Positions 37,488-44,214 of a DNA stretch of 64,000 bases are shown in pieces. A program made the position numbers and the translations under genes. The stretch lies in assembly GCA_044507735.1 (NCBI GenBank), contig JBIQJB010000002.1, forward strand, positions 64,001 through 128,000, written 5' to 3'. The notes under the pieces were generated by a model. That model made no database searches. It was given only the letters and a program-made list of their open reading frames with translations, and was not told where the DNA came from. This DNA is from Nitrosopumilales archaeon (GTDB lineage: Archaea > Thermoproteota > Nitrososphaeria > Nitrososphaerales > Nitrososphaeraceae). The first letter of the stretch is position 1. Every line of letters starts with the position of its first letter.

Positions 37488-38969
37488 ATGTACCGCTCCC
37501 GGCCAAAAGACAAGCTGGATGACAGCGTACTCAGCTTCCTGTCATCTATTCAGCACGACCAGTCCATACTTTACTATGATATCGTTGGGAGCGAGGCGCA
37601 CTCGATAATGCTCCACGAAATGGGAAACATCACTTTGGATGAGCTGAAAAGGATTCTGTCCGCCCTTGAGGAAGCAAGAAAGTACCCTGCAAAGATCGAC
37701 ACTGAAGGCTATGAAGACATTCATGAGGCTCTTGAGGCATTTGTTATCAAGACTGCCGGGATGGACGCAGGCGGCAAGATGCATACCGCCCGGTCCAGGA
37801 ATGACCAAGTGGTCCTTGATGTCAGAATGAAAATACGCGACGACATCAACGACATTTGTGCGGCACTAATCAGTCTCATCGAAGCTCTTGTTGAACGGGC
37901 CAAAGAGACCAAGCAGGTTCCGATGCCGATGTACACTCACTTGCAACAGGCCCAGATAGGAACATTTTCGCACTTTATGCTGTCATATGCCTATGCCCTC
38001 ATGCGCGACATGGAGCGCCTCTATATTGCGTATCAGCGCATTAACCAGTCGCCGCTTGGTGCCTGCGCCATCGGAGGCTCGAGCATCTCGATCGATAGAA
38101 AGAGGACTGCAGTCCTGTTGGGATTTGACAGCATCGTGAGGAACTCAATAGATGCCACCAGCTCCAGAGATTCGTTTCTTGAATATGCGTCAACACTTGC
38201 GATACTGACCAGCAACCTTGGGAGGATTGCTGAAGACTTTATAATTTGGTCGACCACTGAGTTTGGGTACATCGAGCTTGCAGACCGCTACAGCTCTACG
38301 TCAAGCGCGATGCCGCAGAAGAAGAATCCCGATCCTCTGGAACTTACAAGGGCCAAGGCAGCGATTGTTACAAGCAATCTGGTAACTCTGCATGGCATCG
38401 TGAAGGCTCTGCCGTCCGGATACAGCCGCGATTTACAGGATTTCAAGCCACCACTGCTGAACTCATCTGCAGTCACTCTTGCTACTATAATGATAGTGGA
38501 CGGCGTTGTCCGGTCGCTTAAGGTTAACAAAGAAAAAATGCAGCAGGCTGCCAGCACGAGCTATGCCATTGCTCTGGATATAGCTGAACAGCTGGTGACA
38601 AAGCACAAGATGCCATTCCGAAGCGCGCACAAATTGGTCGGCGCGCTCGTCGACAGGGCTGCAAATAATGACAGGAATACTTCGCTTGCAGATCTCCAAC
38701 TTTCAGAAGTCGCAGCAGTTATCAATGCACTGGAAGCAAAAATCAAGCCTGACGAGCTGTTAAACATAGTCCGGGAAATGACGCCAGAAAAATCTCTGGC
38801 GGCCCGCAAGTCCACAGGCTCCCCAAACCTCCAAGAGCAGGAGGAGATGATAAATTCCCTGAGCCAGGGAATCTCAAACTATCGGGTCGGCATAGCAAAG
38901 CGCTCAAAGATGGTCAGGGGTGCATTTGACAGTCTGGAAAAAACTGTCAAGAAGTACTTGCAATCGTGA
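37488..38969 (+). CDS. argH: Argininosuccinate lyase
   Basis: EDIHE, HTARSRNDQ, YTHLQQAQ and SSAMPQKKNPD motifs. Confidence 0.97.
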   Translation: MYRSRPKDKLDDSVLSFLSSIQHDQSILYYDIVGSEAHSIMLHEMGNITLDELKRILSALEEARKYPAKIDTEGYEDIHEALEAFVIKTAGMDAGGKMHTARSRNDQVVLDVRMKIRDDINDICAALISLIEALVERAKETKQVPMPMYTHLQQAQIGTFSHFMLSYAYALMRDMERLYIAYQRINQSPLGACAIGGSSISIDRKRTAVLLGFDSIVRNSIDATSSRDSFLEYASTLAILTSNLGRIAEDFIIWSTTEFGYIELADRYSSTSSAMPQKKNPDPLELTRAKAAIVTSNLVTLHGIVKALPSGYSRDLQDFKPPLLNSSAVTLATIMIVDGVVRSLKVNKEKMQQAASTSYAIALDIAEQLVTKHKMPFRSAHKLVGALVDRAANNDRNTSLADLQLSEVAAVINALEAKIKPDELLNIVREMTPEKSLAARKSTGSPNLQEQEEMINSLSQGISNYRVGIAKRSKMVRGAFDSLEKTVKKYLQS

Positions 38970-39107: not shown

Positions 39108-40340
39108 ATGTCGCAACAAATGTCGCTAAAATCAGACGATCCAAACTATTATGCGCATCAGTACAACTGGATGGGTGAAAACGGCCAGAAGAGAAGGATA
39201 AGGATCCTTGATAGCACGCTAAGAGAAGGCGAGCAGCACCCCGGAGTATCTTTTACCACAAAGCAGAGAATCCAAATCGCTTGGATGCTCGATTCGTTTG
39301 GGGTCGACCAGATTGAGATAAGCCCTGTCGTTTCGCCTGATCATGCTGAAGCCACAAAGACCATAATCAAGCAGGGATTGCGCGCAGACATTGTTGCGCA
39401 CACAAGGGCGATCAAGTCGGACGTTGACGTTGCCATTGACTGCGGCGCGACATGGGTCGCGACCTACATGGGTATTTCAGACATTCACATATCTGCCAAG
39501 CTAAAGATCACTCGTGAAGAGGCAAAGTCAAGGGCCCTCGAAGTAGCCGACTACATCAAGGCTCATGGCCTGAAGGCAAGGTTTACAATGGAAGATGCCA
39601 GTAGAACCGAGCCGGCGTTCCTCATCGAGATGTGCAGGGAAATGAACAAGCGTGGCATCGAGAGAATAAGCATACCCGATACTGTTGGCATCATGCGTCC
39701 GCGCGGTATGTACAACTTGGTCAAGATGGTTCATGACAGCCTTGACACTTCAAGGACGTCACTTGACGTACACTGCCACAACGACATAGGTCTTGCTCTG
39801 GCAAACGCCTTGGCGGGATGTGAAGCAGGAGCCGACCAGATCCACACGACCATCGACGGCCTTGGGGAACGGACTGGGATCCCAAGTCTCGCAGAAACGG
39901 CAGTCGCGCTCACGCTGATTTACAAGTCAAATAACGATCTGCGCCTGCACATGCTCAAGGATCTATCAAAGACGATCTCTGACTATGTCGGACTGCAAAT
40001 ACCCGAATCAAAGCCAATAGTGGGCGATAGTGCATACAAGCACAAGGCCGGGACGCACTTGGCAGCAATACTTCGTAACCCCTCCGCATACGAGATAATC
40101 GAGCCAAAATTAGTCGGCAACAGGCGCAAGATAGTATTTGGCGAGCTTGCCGGCAAGAACGGTGCCGCATATCTGCTATCGTTGCTTGGATTGGAAACTG
40201 GCAAGGCCGAAGCGGAAGCCCTAGCACGCGGTCTGAAAGAGCTTCGAATGGGAGACATACTCGAGCTCTATCTTGACGACAGGCTGGAGAGAAAGATACT
40301 TAATGACGCTGCTGTAAATCTAAGCACAACAAAGGAGTAA
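39108..40340 (+). CDS. Homocitrate synthase (DRE-TIM, LeuA family)
   Basis: DSTLREGEQ, HCHND, GLGERTG and HKAG motifs; no LeuA regulatory domain; directly precedes lysW. Confidence 0.85.
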   Translation: MSQQMSLKSDDPNYYAHQYNWMGENGQKRRIRILDSTLREGEQHPGVSFTTKQRIQIAWMLDSFGVDQIEISPVVSPDHAEATKTIIKQGLRADIVAHTRAIKSDVDVAIDCGATWVATYMGISDIHISAKLKITREEAKSRALEVADYIKAHGLKARFTMEDASRTEPAFLIEMCREMNKRGIERISIPDTVGIMRPRGMYNLVKMVHDSLDTSRTSLDVHCHNDIGLALANALAGCEAGADQIHTTIDGLGERTGIPSLAETAVALTLIYKSNNDLRLHMLKDLSKTISDYVGLQIPESKPIVGDSAYKHKAGTHLAAILRNPSAYEIIEPKLVGNRRKIVFGELAGKNGAAYLLSLLGLETGKAEAEALARGLKELRMGDILELYLDDRLERKILNDAAVNLSTTKE

Positions 40341-40348
40341 AAGTTGAC

Positions 40349-40516
40349 ATGGTCAAATGTCCAGAATGCGATGCAGAGATCAAGATACCTTCGGATTCGA
40401 TAGAGGGAGAAATCGTAACCTGTCCTGACTGCGGAGCAAGCTACGAGCTTGTCAAGTCTGCAGATGGCTTTGGTATTAAACCGGCGCAGGTTGTCGGCGA
40501 GGACTGGGGTCAGTGA
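40349..40516 (+). CDS. lysW: LysW amino-group carrier protein, 55 aa, C-terminus EDWGQ
   Basis: Hand-translated MVKCPECDAEIKIPSDSIEGEIVTCPDCGASYELVKSADGFGIKPAQVVGEDWGQ; lies between homocitrate synthase and lysX. Confidence 0.93.
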   Translation: MVKCPECDAEIKIPSDSIEGEIVTCPDCGASYELVKSADGFGIKPAQVVGEDWGQ

Positions 40517-41415
40517 GGCAGGAAAAGGATAGCCACGATCAGTCGTCATCGTCCAATTTTTCCGGCAACTCTCTTATCATCCTCTATGATAACATAAGGT
40601 GGGAAGAAAAGGCCCTTTACGAGGCTGCAAAGAAAAAGGGAGTGGCAGTCGAAAATGTCGACTGCAAGAACCTTGTTGCGAGACTGAACGACAGGCAATC
40701 AAAATACAGGGGTCAGGTTGTACTCCAGAGGAGCGTCAGCTATTTCAAAAACGTACATTCTACGGCAGCGCTTGAGGGCTTGGGAGCACGCGTGATAAAC
40801 CCCTCCCACGCTGCAATTCTCTGCGGCAACAAGATGTATGCCCACATAGAGCTCGAAAAGGCTGGTGTCAAGACGCCCAAGGCAGTGGCGGCATTTTCAG
40901 AAGAGGGGGCTTTGGCCGCCCTTGACGAATTGGGCTACCCTGCAGTCATCAAGCCCACTGTGGGAAGCTGGGGTAGGCTTATCGCGCTATTGCGCGACAA
41001 GGAGGCAGCCCGTGCAGTTATTGAAGACAGAGAGCACATGTTCCCACTTTACCATGTTTATTACTTTGAAGAGTTTATAGAACGTCCGCCCCGGGACATA
41101 AGGGCGATAGTGGTTGGTGACCGAGTAGTGGCTGCGATATATCGCTACTCTGGTGAAGGTGAGTGGAAGACTAACATGGCGCTCGGGGGCCATGCAGAAG
41201 CGTGCCCTGTCACTAAAGAACTTGAAGATATCTGCCTCAAAGCCACACACGCCCTTGGCGGTCAGATAGTGGGTGTGGATCTGATGGAGAGCAAGAGTGA
41301 AGGATTAGTGGTTCACGAAGTTAACAATACCACCGAGTTTAAGAATACTGTCAGGGTTACAGGAGTTGACATCCCCGGATTGATGGTAGACTATGCGCTA
41401 GCGCAAGGAAAGTAA
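40513..41415 (+). CDS. lysX: LysX ATP-grasp ligase (alpha-aminoadipate-LysW ligase family)
   Basis: IRWEEKAL, KPTVGSWGRL, WKTNMALGG and EVNNTTEFKN motifs. Confidence 0.92.
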   Translation: MRQEKDSHDQSSSSNFSGNSLIILYDNIRWEEKALYEAAKKKGVAVENVDCKNLVARLNDRQSKYRGQVVLQRSVSYFKNVHSTAALEGLGARVINPSHAAILCGNKMYAHIELEKAGVKTPKAVAAFSEEGALAALDELGYPAVIKPTVGSWGRLIALLRDKEAARAVIEDREHMFPLYHVYYFEEFIERPPRDIRAIVVGDRVVAAIYRYSGEGEWKTNMALGGHAEACPVTKELEDICLKATHALGGQIVGVDLMESKSEGLVVHEVNNTTEFKNTVRVTGVDIPGLMVDYALAQGK

Positions 41416-41422
41416 AGAAGAA

Positions 41423-42541
41423 TTGGTATCGCCAAGTTACGCAGTAGAATTATTGAAAAAGGCACTAGAGCTTTACACTCCTTCCAGGTCAGAGGCTGCA
41501 CTTGCCAACATGATAAAGGACAAGTGCGTCAATGAGCTTGGCTTTGAGCAGGTTAACATTGACAATGTCGGCAACATCATTGCCACGAAAGGCACGGGTG
41601 AGCCCCGTATACTTCTATGCGGCCACATGGACACGGTGCCCGGTCAGGTGCCGGTGAGGATTGAAGATGGCTACATCTATGGCCGTGGTGCTTCCGATGC
41701 AAAGGCTCCTCTAATTGCAATGCTGCTCGCAGCATCCGAATTTCCAAAGCAAAGTGGTACAGTCATCTTTGCAGGAGTCGTTGATGAAGAGGGCAATGCT
41801 ACGGGGGTAAAACAATTGGTCAAGAGTAAGATGGGAGTGGACTATGCAGTTTTTGGAGAACCCTCGGGCGTTGAAAGCATTACAGTGGCCTACAAGGGAA
41901 GGCTTGCAATCCGGCTCACTTGCGACGTTGGCGACAGTGCTCATGCGAGTGCGCCGTGGCTTGCCAAAAACGCGATAGAAGAGATGTATGATTTCTGGAG
42001 TGCGATCAAGGCAGAGATAGAGCGCGTCGGGACGGCCGAAAATAAGGCCAAGTCAATCAGCTGCAGTCTGACAGAGATAACTGGAGGATCAAGCCACAAC
42101 GTTACTCCCCAGAAATGCAAGATTACCATGGACATCCGGGTTCCTACAATCACGACTTGCGAAAACGTACTCAGGATTGTCGATACGGTAGTTGCAAAGG
42201 TTGCTGCGGAAAAAGGAGTCAAAGCCACTTACCGTATAGAGGACAAGACCGAGCCCTTTGAAGCAGATCATTCTTCTCCGCTTGTAAGGTCACTGTTGCT
42301 CGCAGTGCTGGACGTCCGCAAAAGGCGGCCAATGCTTTTGCGCAAGACAGGAACAGGCGACATGAATGTACTTGGGCACAGCTTCAAGATACCTGTCATA
42401 ACATATGGACCCGGTGACCCTCATGCGTCACACACTGCCGACGAGCGCGTCAACATCGAGGAATATGTCTCAAGCATCGAAGTTTACCAGCGTGCACTGT
42501 TCCACCTCTCGCGCTTGCACCACCTGAAAAAGAAGCAATAG
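41423..42541 (+). CDS. lysK: LysK [LysW]-lysine/ornithine hydrolase (M20 family)
   Basis: GHMDTVPG, GRGASDAK, DEE, GEP, KTGTGDMN and YGPGD motifs. Confidence 0.92.
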   Translation: MVSPSYAVELLKKALELYTPSRSEAALANMIKDKCVNELGFEQVNIDNVGNIIATKGTGEPRILLCGHMDTVPGQVPVRIEDGYIYGRGASDAKAPLIAMLLAASEFPKQSGTVIFAGVVDEEGNATGVKQLVKSKMGVDYAVFGEPSGVESITVAYKGRLAIRLTCDVGDSAHASAPWLAKNAIEEMYDFWSAIKAEIERVGTAENKAKSISCSLTEITGGSSHNVTPQKCKITMDIRVPTITTCENVLRIVDTVVAKVAAEKGVKATYRIEDKTEPFEADHSSPLVRSLLLAVLDVRKRRPMLLRKTGTGDMNVLGHSFKIPVITYGPGDPHASHTADERVNIEEYVSSIEVYQRALFHLSRLHHLKKKQ

Positions 42542-42598: not shown

Positions 42599-43672
42599 AT
42601 GCTATGGTTTGTAGGTACTGGTATTGATGGGTACAGAGGCTTAAGCCTTGCAGCACTTGATGTCTTGAAGAAATGCGACACCATCTATGCTGAAAGGTTC
42701 ACTAGTGCCCTCTCGGACAAGGACCTGGAAGGAATCAATGCATTGGTTGGAAAGGAGGTCAAGTCAGTCCAGAGAAGCTTTGTCGAGGACGGAAGAGAGA
42801 TTCTTGAAAACGCAAAGAAAAGCGAAATTGCACTTGTTACATACGGGGACCCGATGATTGCCACAACGCACAGTGAGCTTCGTGCAAGGGCTGCTAAGCA
42901 TTCCGTCAAGACAGCAGTTCTTCATGCCGCGTCAGGAATATCATCGACAATTGGAGAAACAGGCCTGCATGTATACAAGTTTGGCAGGATGGTTACGATG
43001 ATGTCGGAGCCCCAATCAGCAATCAGCGTTTACAATACCATTTTTGAGAACCTGCTTGCAGGGAACCACACTCTTGTCTTGACAGAGTATAGCAGTAGTC
43101 ATGACGAGCGCGGACAACCATTCTTTCTGGAACCCCCGACTGCGTTCAAGATGCTTCTTGATGTAGAGCGCGATCAAAGGTATCAGGTCTTTTCGAACAA
43201 TACCTTCGTAGTAGTTGCGTCGAGGGTTGGTCAGTCTGACCAGAGAGTGGTGTCGGGCAAGGCTGGCTCGCTGGCAAAGATCGACTTTGGAGCAGGCCCC
43301 CACATAGTAGTTGTCACTGGCTCCATGCATTTCACTGAATCTGAAGCAGTAGCAGCGTTGACTGAAAGCTTCGACCCGCCAGCGGATAATTCGCAAGGGA
43401 TCAAAAGGATCGCTACGCAAATGATTGAGCGTTATGCGCCGAAAGCCAAGGTTGCGGCACGGGAAATGCGTGAAATCATAAGGCGAGACGCAGGAGACAA
43501 TAAAGGCATGTTCGATGTCCTAGACAACGCAGAGTATTACATTGCAGATGCCGAGCGTTTTCTCCGTCAGGCCAAGTTCGAGCTGGCTGTACTGAGCATC
43601 GGCTATGCTGAGGGCCTTGTTGATGCACTCAGATTCCAGAAAGGGATCAACCCTTGGGAAACTTCTGATTGA
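42599..43672 (+). CDS. dph5: Diphthine synthase with C-terminal DUF357-like extension
   Basis: LWFVGTG, GDPMIATTH, GLHVYKFGR and HTLVL motifs. Confidence 0.92.
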   Translation: MLWFVGTGIDGYRGLSLAALDVLKKCDTIYAERFTSALSDKDLEGINALVGKEVKSVQRSFVEDGREILENAKKSEIALVTYGDPMIATTHSELRARAAKHSVKTAVLHAASGISSTIGETGLHVYKFGRMVTMMSEPQSAISVYNTIFENLLAGNHTLVLTEYSSSHDERGQPFFLEPPTAFKMLLDVERDQRYQVFSNNTFVVVASRVGQSDQRVVSGKAGSLAKIDFGAGPHIVVVTGSMHFTESEAVAALTESFDPPADNSQGIKRIATQMIERYAPKAKVAAREMREIIRRDAGDNKGMFDVLDNAEYYIADAERFLRQAKFELAVLSIGYAEGLVDALRFQKGINPWETSD

Positions 43673-44214
43673 CATATATTATATATGAGAGGCAGAGATG
43701 GACAGCCGTGTCAGACGATCAAGCCTTCAAGTTGCTCGCCGATAGCAAGGTACAGGAATTTAACAGCTGGAGGATGAAGAACCTGACAGCAAAGCTTGAC
43801 CTTACTGGGAAAGACCTGTCGGGCAGAAATCTGGCGGGAGCATACCTGAATGGAGTCGTTGCAGACAAGGCAAACTTTTCAGGGGCAAATCTTGCCCGAG
43901 CAAATTTTGTACAGGCAAGCCTGAACGGCGCGAATTTTGAAAATGCAGACCTTACAGATACTCTGCTAATGTACACCGAAATGAAAGATGCGCGGCTAGC
44001 GGGATCTAGCCTGCAAGGAACCAACTTTATGTGGGCCAACCTTCAAGGTGCAGACCTTACTTCGAGCAAGATGTACAAGACCGTATTTGTTGAGGCAAAC
44101 CTGCAAAATGCCAAGGTCGCTGGTGCCGATAGAGCCGGGGCTTTTCTAAAATACGCCAAGCTAGATGGCACGGAATGGTTCGAGCACGCCGCTGAAAAAA
44201 AGGCTACCACTTGA
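43669..44214 (+). CDS. Pentapeptide-repeat protein
   Basis: Tandem A(N/D)(L/F)xx repeats. Confidence 0.9.
   Translation: MTYIIYERQRWTAVSDDQAFKLLADSKVQEFNSWRMKNLTAKLDLTGKDLSGRNLAGAYLNGVVADKANFSGANLARANFVQASLNGANFENADLTDTLLMYTEMKDARLAGSSLQGTNFMWANLQGADLTSSKMYKTVFVEANLQNAKVAGADRAGAFLKYAKLDGTEWFEHAAEKKATT

Follow-up and report, generated by a model that had tools for sequence, protein, structure and literature searches.

A LysW amino-group carrier encoded with a terminal glutamine in ammonia-oxidising archaea

Introduction

All amino-group carrier proteins characterised so far are described as working through the gamma-carboxyl of a conserved Glu at the C-terminus, and here we report a carrier gene of this type, lysW, that ends in Gln instead. 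The gene lies in a lys operon at 39108-42541 of a stretch of 64,000 nucleotides (positions 64,001 to 128,000 of the forward strand of contig JBIQJB010000002.1, assembly GCA_044507735.1) from a Nitrosopumilales archaeon; we call this whole stretch the window. The Gln end is found on both carriers of the genome, is conserved across the genus, and has been exchanged with Glu repeatedly among related archaea, while the ligase sequences and the downstream enzymes do not follow the exchange. We tentatively favour a reading in which LysW is a working carrier that is made as a pro-form and has its terminal Gln deamidated to Glu, most simply by the hydrolase LysK.

Results

The operon and its carrier gene

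The list of open reading frames (ORFs) of the window places a synthase gene, lysW, lysX and lysK head to tail on the + strand as a single tight operon, separated in turn by 8 nucleotides, a 4-nucleotide overlap and 7 nucleotides:

39108-40340, + strand: homocitrate-synthase-like protein, 410 residues, operon gene 1; PF00682 (HMGL-like) 243 bits, PF22617 (HCS_D2) 64 bits
40349-40516, + strand: lysW, 55-residue zinc-ribbon amino-group carrier homologue ending EDWGQ; NF041070 88.2 bits (cut-off 75), PF21344 51.6 bits
40511-40513, + strand: terminal Gln codon CAG of lysW, followed by the TGA stop at 40514-40516
40513-41415, + strand: lysX, ATP-grasp ligase, 300 residues, GTG start; TIGR02144 329 bits (cut-off 276), PF08443 107 bits, PF22626 53 bits
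41423-42541, + strand: lysK, M20 hydrolase, 372 residues; NF003367 291 bits (below its cut-off of 363), TIGR01902 280 bits (cut-off 163)

The C-terminus of LysW reads VVGEDWGQ (DNA gag gac tgg ggt cag tga), and the ORF, the DNA and the family-model matches agree on this ending and on the two intact CxxC pairs, as the first-pass annotation of the window had them. The pairs are C4/C7 and C25/C28; all four Cys, together with E51, D52, W53 and G54, are invariant in an alignment of 35 sequences. Over its whole length the protein aligns with the three solved LysW chains, and each of these finishes EDWGE. Its setting is also that of a LysW/ArgW carrier, with lysX overlapping the lysW stop codon, lysK following, and lysY, lysZ and lysJ standing beside a second carrier elsewhere in the genome. 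The encoded last residue is nevertheless Gln where these carriers have a C-terminal Glu. Judged by its sequence, then, LysW of the window is a carrier homologue that, as encoded, falls outside the biochemical definition of the family.

The available excerpt of PMC10433800 places the attachment point at the gamma-carboxyl of the C-terminal Glu, reports that an E54A carrier leads to arginine auxotrophy in Natrinema, and describes the GSWGR motif of the ligase as recognising the E-D-W-G tail of the carrier. Because Gln has no gamma-carboxyl, the encoded end conflicts with this published chemistry, and the conflict raised by the first-pass annotation stands.

The partners of the carrier are intact. 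LysX has the GSWGR motif and matches the PDB chains 3vpd_A (224 bits) and 1uc8_A (212 bits), and LysK matches the [LysW]-lysine hydrolase 5xoy_A at 180 bits. The GTG start of lysX begins on the last base of the terminal CAG codon of lysW. At its N-terminus (40513-40575) LysX has a Ser-rich, poorly conserved extension of about 20 residues ahead of the pre-ATP-grasp domain, and the family models match only from residue 21-23 onward. The first-pass annotation had described an intact homocitrate synthase-lysW-lysX-lysK operon; the operon is indeed intact, but the name of its first gene is less secure. The synthase reaches 364.2 bits on the homocitrate synthase model TIGR02146, below the equivalog cut-off of 413.55, and its best match, the isopropylmalate synthase subfamily model NF002085 (407 bits), is also below cut-off (517). 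The label homocitrate synthase for 39108-40340 comes from its place in the lys operon.

The terminal codon is supported by independent assemblies

One base alone separates CAG from GAG, which is all that speaks for a sequencing error or a private mutation. The first-pass annotation had asked for the C at 40511 to be confirmed, with GAG at this codon or syntenic orthologs ending in Glu as the outcomes that would speak against it. We compared the base with assembled contigs, not raw reads, from two independent studies. Run X4 (study P4) contributes an 8273-nucleotide contig that covers 39800-41200 and differs at 3 positions, 40511 not among them; run X16 (study P7) contributes one that covers 40005-40620 without a difference; a further run, X11, has no coverage of 40511. 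The RNA run X20 covers only 39811-40014, a part of the synthase gene, and not lysW. Both contigs thus carry the same C, and the Gln end is shared by every sampled genome of the genus, by most of the listed homologues and by most named public records (counts below). We give error or private mutation no weight.

Nor can the overlap of lysW and lysX explain the Gln, because the shared base is G, which fits CAG and GAG alike, and because arg-type copies of the carrier, which do not overlap their ligase gene, are Gln-ended as well.

Both carriers of the genome end in Gln

The first-pass annotation had expected a second, EDWGE-ended paralog, and this expectation failed. Searching the source genome, which is 97% complete, with the carrier family model at E ≤ 10 gave two carriers above cut-off, both Gln-ended, and three other matches of 11-12 bits; no Glu-ended second carrier was found in this search. 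The second carrier ends GEDWGQ and belongs to a cluster that also holds the lysY, lysZ and lysJ genes noted earlier as absent from the window:

G000:C13 (locus L006, 4712-10567), - strand: second carrier cluster, argG - lysW2 - argX-like ligase - lysY/argC - lysZ - lysJ - lysM

In this cluster lysZ scores 300 bits on NF010662, and lysM is an Lrp-type regulator (NF040947, 200 bits). Arginine genes flank both carrier clusters, argG here and argH at the window operon.

A LysZ-like kinase, LysY, LysJ and LysK each occur once in the genome, the next-best M20 match to the last reaching only 26 bits. Strong RimK-family matches number two, one beside each carrier, and no further RimK-family ligase paralog was found in the genome. 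No accessory deamidase gene was seen in the window operon or the C13 cluster, a statement about these two clusters made without a genome-wide phylogenetic profile. At 97% completeness, the genome yielded no match to dapA, dapF or argJ. A lone lysA-like pyridoxal-phosphate decarboxylase gene (G000:C40:38213-39478; L164 4154-5497) scores 255 bits, below its cut-off of 298, and adjoins a CDC48 ATPase gene among unrelated genes. It may act on another substrate, for example a polyamine precursor, and we rejected a diaminopimelate pathway through it, given its isolation, its score and the lack of matches to dapA and dapF.

It thus appears that this organism makes both lysine and ornithine by way of Gln-ended carriers, with a single LysZ/LysY/LysJ/LysK set between them. 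These carriers must be functional, because both copies here are Gln-ended, because the only carrier of genus g27 (below) is Gln-ended too, and because dapA, dapF and argJ were not found.

The Gln end is widespread

A homologue search returned 274 proteins at E ≤ 1e-3, and tails were taken from the 120 listed: 90 end GEDWGQ, 24 end GEDWGE and 6 have other ends. Three close homologues, P0003, P0103 and P0047, have odd tails: in one, EDWGQ is followed by WDWGQ, in another the Gln is followed by four additional residues, and the remaining one ends EDWDQ. If such tails are real, an internal Gln would be unusable through its alpha-carboxyl.

Genomes were scanned with the back-translated motif E-D-W-G-(Q or E)-stop, counting exact matches only, and a reversed-pattern control gave 0 matches in nearly every genome. 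The end states of genomes are taken from these match tallies. The tallies include genomes flagged as unpublished, namely G009, G022, G123, G124, G125 and G150 (own genus), G177 and G178 (g31), G232, G250, G334 and G445; no locus was taken from them, and the tallies hold without them (65/65 against 71/71, for example). Among 401 genomes of the order, the Gln form was matched in 233 and the Glu form in 291, distributed as follows:

Family f1 (own): Gln form 111/111; Glu form 33/111
Family f13: Gln form 111/112; Glu form 109/112; mostly one match of each
Family f9: Gln form 7/11; Glu form 11/11
Family f4: Gln form 2/9; Glu form 8/9
Family f10: Gln form 1/97 (the match followed by Trp, not by a stop); Glu form 76/97
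Other 15 families of the order: Gln form 0; Glu form mostly present
Genus g1 (own, in f1): Gln form 36/36; Glu form 0/36
Genus g27 (in f1): Gln form 23/23; Glu form 0/23
Genus g31 (in f1): Gln form 20/20; Glu form 20/20
Genus g32 (in f1): Gln form 12/12; Glu form 11/12
Genus g28 (in f1): Gln form 3/3; Glu form 2/3

The Gln end is the norm in f1 and f13, two large families of ammonia oxidisers. Genomes therefore come in three states, Gln/Gln, mixed and Glu/Glu, and all four combinations of lys-type and arg-type ends are found inside family f1. The combined pattern is present in 71/71 genomes of the own genus, where all codons among the matches listed are Gln codons; both CAA and CAG are used at the terminal position, and never GAR. 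Orthologs in this genus thus do not end in Glu, the outcome that had been set against the Gln end. In g27, genomes that are 99% complete have a single LysW, which is Gln-ended in 5/5. One g27 genome also holds an E-D-W-G-Q pattern followed by Trp (G069:C1:1952672-1952689) that the LysW family search did not recognise as a carrier, and this is probably a chance match. In family f13, locus L060 (G483:C1:1914458-1915735) holds an extra Gln-ended LysW-like ORF with no ligase gene within 1 kb downstream, which may be an orphan additional carrier; G359, of the same genus as G483, has two Gln-pattern matches.

The first-pass annotation had also mentioned Gln-ended paralogs in other ammonia-oxidising archaea, and this proved right. 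The motif was readable in 79 of 80 named public records (the shorter L084 was left unread), with 67 Gln and 12 Glu ends. Gln ends occur in records titled Nitrososphaera, Nitrosocosmicus, Nitrosopumilus, Nitrosopelagicus, Nitrosotenuis and Nitrosomirales, and a Glu end in one titled Nitrosopolaris.

The Gln end also reaches beyond the order. In a sample of 401 further genomes of the phylum the Gln form was matched in 86, including families f29 (14/17) and f35 (9/24), and in 8 of 12 such places that we retrieved a LysX-like ORF comes after a zinc-ribbon carrier. Proteins titled Candidatus Caldarchaeum or Aigarchaeota match the f29 type, and of these 18/25 end in Gln and 7/25 in Glu. Since these Caldarchaeum-type carriers and those of other families in the phylum are Gln-ended too, we do not favour a link of the Gln end to ammonia oxidation, which the first-pass annotation had tentatively raised, or to mesophily. 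When 1.84 billion cluster representatives were searched with a profile, 1143 matched at E ≤ 1e-3; among the best 150, tails could be read in 119 (102 Glu and 17 Gln), the other 31 being incomplete or divergent at the end. With 17 of 119 readable representatives and with f29 and f35 outside the order, Gln ends have arisen in several distant LysW lineages.

Gln and Glu have been swapped repeatedly

To follow the terminus through evolution we paired carriers with their ligases. From 60 retrieved carrier-terminus regions, 58 carrier-ligase pairs and the two own pairs gave a tree of 60 ligases (FastTree, 284 columns), in which some of the checked nodes are poorly supported (0.29-0.53). Chance pattern matches without a zinc ribbon (L051, L159) and LysW-like loci without a ligase ORF meeting the pairing rule (L060, L160-L162) were dropped, and the ligase outlier L048 is in the tree but outside the counts.

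The tree falls into two clades, LysX-type and ArgX-type. The basal families have Glu-ended lys-type carriers, the clade f9+f4+f13+f1 has Gln-ended ones, and Glu returns in g31, g28 and g20+g18. Support is 0.96 and 0.94 at the nodes that set g31 and g28 beside Gln-ended sisters, and 0.90 at the g20+g18 node. Arg-type carriers end in Glu everywhere except inside f1. By parsimony, the end changed 4 times among the 37 tips of the LysX clade and 3 times among the 22 tips of the ArgX clade, which makes at least 7 Gln/Glu swaps in the sampled tree. Within f13, the ten genomes placed in the tree have Gln on the lys-type copy, and the one arg-type copy retrieved has Glu. Such paralog-specific retention of Gln and Glu hints at separate control of the lysine and arginine carrier pools.

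Ligase and downstream enzymes do not follow the end type

GSWGR is present in 59/59 ligases, 33 with Gln-ended and 26 with Glu-ended partners. LysX of the window shares 79% sequence identity with a Gln-partnered LysX of its own genus and nearly as much, 78%, with a Glu-partnered one from a sister genus. Across the 59 counted ligases, no alignment column tracks the end type in both clades. Column 1 separates Gln from Glu perfectly, and we discarded it as an artefact: it lies upstream of the start codon and re-reads the last codons of the carrier in another frame. At column 231, a hydrophobic position in the helix before the GVDLME motif, Met is found in 6/6 Glu-partnered LysX of the derived clade (g31, g28, g20, g18), while Gln-partnered LysX have Val, Leu or Phe and basal Glu-partnered ones Val, Ile, Phe or Thr. 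In sequence, the ligase is not re-tooled for Gln partners.

Mixed genomes show the same for the later steps. The lys-type carrier ends in Gln and the arg-type in Glu in G036 and G263, and the reverse holds in G101 and G107; in each of these four, as in one Glu/Glu genome, LysZ and LysK are both present exactly once (E ≤ 1e-10). One downstream enzyme set serves both end types.

Neighbouring genes

Upstream of the operon stands an arginine gene:

37488-38969, + strand: argH (argininosuccinate lyase); PF00206 181 bits, ASL_C2 47 bits

Directly 3' of lysK, at 42599-43672 (+), is a gene for a 357-residue protein with a tetrapyrrole-methylase-type domain (PF00590, 73 bits) and DUF357 (46 bits), probably unconnected with the lys operon. 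At 43669-44214 (+) follows a 181-residue ORF whose translation has five-residue repeat runs and the look of a pentapeptide-repeat protein.

Discussion

A proposed pro-carrier matured by deamidation

The account we prefer, although we put it at somewhat less than an even chance, is that LysW of the window is a working carrier made as a pro-form whose terminal Gln is enzymatically deamidated to Glu, most simply by LysK. The terminal Gln would first be converted to Glu; LysX or ArgX would then phosphorylate the gamma-carboxyl and couple alpha-aminoadipate or glutamate to it; LysZ, LysY and LysJ would modify the tethered substrate; and LysK would free lysine or ornithine and leave the carrier in its Glu form. 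A single deamidation per carrier molecule would suffice, because release by LysK regenerates the Glu form. LysK is the simplest candidate deamidase: it normally cleaves a gamma-glutamyl amide at this very residue, and the Gln side chain is such an amide, from which ammonia would leave.

The evolutionary pattern argues in the same direction. If a one-step change from Glu to Gln in an essential, sole carrier was survivable, then the existing enzymes must already cope with Gln. That the mature carrier would be the same in both cases is the most economical explanation, because it accommodates the repeated swaps, the unchanged ligase, the shared enzymes, the lack of an extra gene in the two clusters and the independent origins. 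The Pup system of actinobacteria offers a working precedent by analogy. According to the available excerpt of PMC8599861, Pup is activated as an acyl-phosphate and joined to its targets through the gamma-carboxylate of a terminal Glu. Some lineages encode this residue as Glu and others as Gln, and Dop, the depupylase that takes Pup off its targets, also deamidates the Gln form. The parallel with LysW lies in Gln being encoded in some lineages and Glu in close relatives, a likeness in working and not a homology. The folds are unrelated, ATP-grasp and M20 here and glutamine-synthetase-like there. The archaeal genome also has no hydrolase homologous to its ligases, its only two such RimK-family genes being the carrier-paired ones, and the deamidation of LysW is our conjecture where that of Pup is described.

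Several observations weigh against this account. Recognition by LysK is expected to involve the lysine or ornithine moiety of the substrate, which may make Gln a poor one. A silent pro-form should drift between the two codons, and yet the states have been held for long and per paralog, as in f13 and in the own genus with its lack of GAR, which suggests a constraint on the end itself. The amide thus probably matters in its own right, a function that the pro-form model leaves unexplained. The Met at column 231 could be a weak hint of ligase co-variation, or it could reflect shared ancestry of the cassettes.

Other explanations

The nearest families of LysX are alpha-L-glutamate ligases (TIGR00768 at 301 bits, with the MptN, RimK and CofF models), which like LysX add to a terminal carboxylate, of a protein or a cofactor, and for which, by their family names, alpha-linkage is the common chemistry and glutamate the residue added. 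LysX, like ArgX, might activate the alpha-carboxyl of the terminal Gln, the sole carboxylate left, and place the substrate on a peptide bond, with LysK acting as a carboxypeptidase. We regard this as the main rival, though an unlikely one. It would require no additional enzyme, and an amide that blocks the gamma position would let selection keep Gln, which fits f13 and the conservation in the own genus. The costs lie further down the pathway, where LysZ, LysY, LysJ and LysK of Gln systems would all have to act on peptide-linked intermediates, a wholesale shift to the alpha linkage that we doubt as well. The tether, judging from the residue structures, would be two carbons shorter; the single LysZ and single LysK of mixed genomes would need to take both geometries; and at each step from Glu to Gln five enzymes, the ligase among them, would have to take to the new linkage together, whereas the seven switches came with no consistent change in the ligase. 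The E54A carrier of Natrinema, moreover, keeps its alpha-carboxyl, and the strain is still an arginine auxotroph (available excerpt of PMC10433800). Were the alpha linkage nonetheless true, it would be a second regiochemistry for amino-group carrier proteins, in some of the most abundant archaea of soil and ocean.

The conversion might instead be the work of the ligase, with LysX or ArgX using nucleotide and phosphate to turn the Gln amide into an acyl-phosphate, or swapping ammonia for the substrate amine. This we consider quite improbable, even though it would explain why neither carrier cluster has an additional gene and would be needed solely at the first turnover of each carrier molecule. 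We know of no ATP-grasp enzyme that converts a Gln amide in this way, and ligase sequences do not differ by the end type of their partner. Dop again offers a parallel, since it cuts the Gln amide of Pup with a catalytic phosphate in a ligase-like active site (available excerpt of PMC8599861), but Dop has a glutamine-synthetase fold where LysX is an ATP-grasp enzyme.

A role other than that of a carrier, with the Gln-ended protein as an unloadable decoy or regulator that separates lysine from arginine flux, seems very hard to sustain; the first-pass annotation had suggested the decoy, alongside prior deamidation and ligation to the alpha-carboxyl. Gln does lack the gamma-carboxyl used in characterised systems (PMC10433800, available excerpt), and many genomes pair one Gln-ended with one Glu-ended carrier. 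But both carriers of the present genome are Gln-ended, as is the sole carrier of the five g27 genomes, dapA, dapF and argJ were not found, and the gene sits in a tight operon with its own ligase, the stop and start codons overlapping. We also set aside mistranslation by the archaeal Glu-tRNA(Gln) route, in which Glu would be inserted at the Gln codon and which we judge too inefficient for a stoichiometric carrier, and non-enzymatic deamidation of the C-terminal Gln, which is probably too slow. The probability that is left belongs to mechanisms not yet conceived.

Relation to known carriers and significance

In most respects the system resembles those of Thermus thermophilus, Sulfolobus and Thermococcus (structures 3wwl, 3vpb/3vpd and 5k2m), with which it shares the zinc ribbon, the acidic EDWG tail, the adjacent GSWGR-containing ATP-grasp ligase and the LysZ/LysY/LysJ/LysK set; with Sulfolobus it also shares the use of one downstream set for both lysine and arginine. 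It differs from them in the terminal Gln and in having two carriers, each with its own ligase. We found no paper that mentions this carrier ending, in a search that largely left out subscription journals and supplements, so that a published remark may exist.

In this genome no carrier lacks the Gln, and no other lysine or ornithine route was found. On the lysine-type carrier it is present in nearly all sampled genomes of the family that holds Nitrosopumilus-titled records, and it recurs in carriers of records titled Nitrosocosmicus, Nitrososphaera and Caldarchaeum. Genome-scale metabolic models of ammonia-oxidising archaea add the LysW steps by analogy (PMC6038301), and the finding bears on such models. 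It points to either a maturation step, deamidation, or a different linkage, so far undescribed in the literature searched, in the central biosynthesis of globally abundant nitrifiers.

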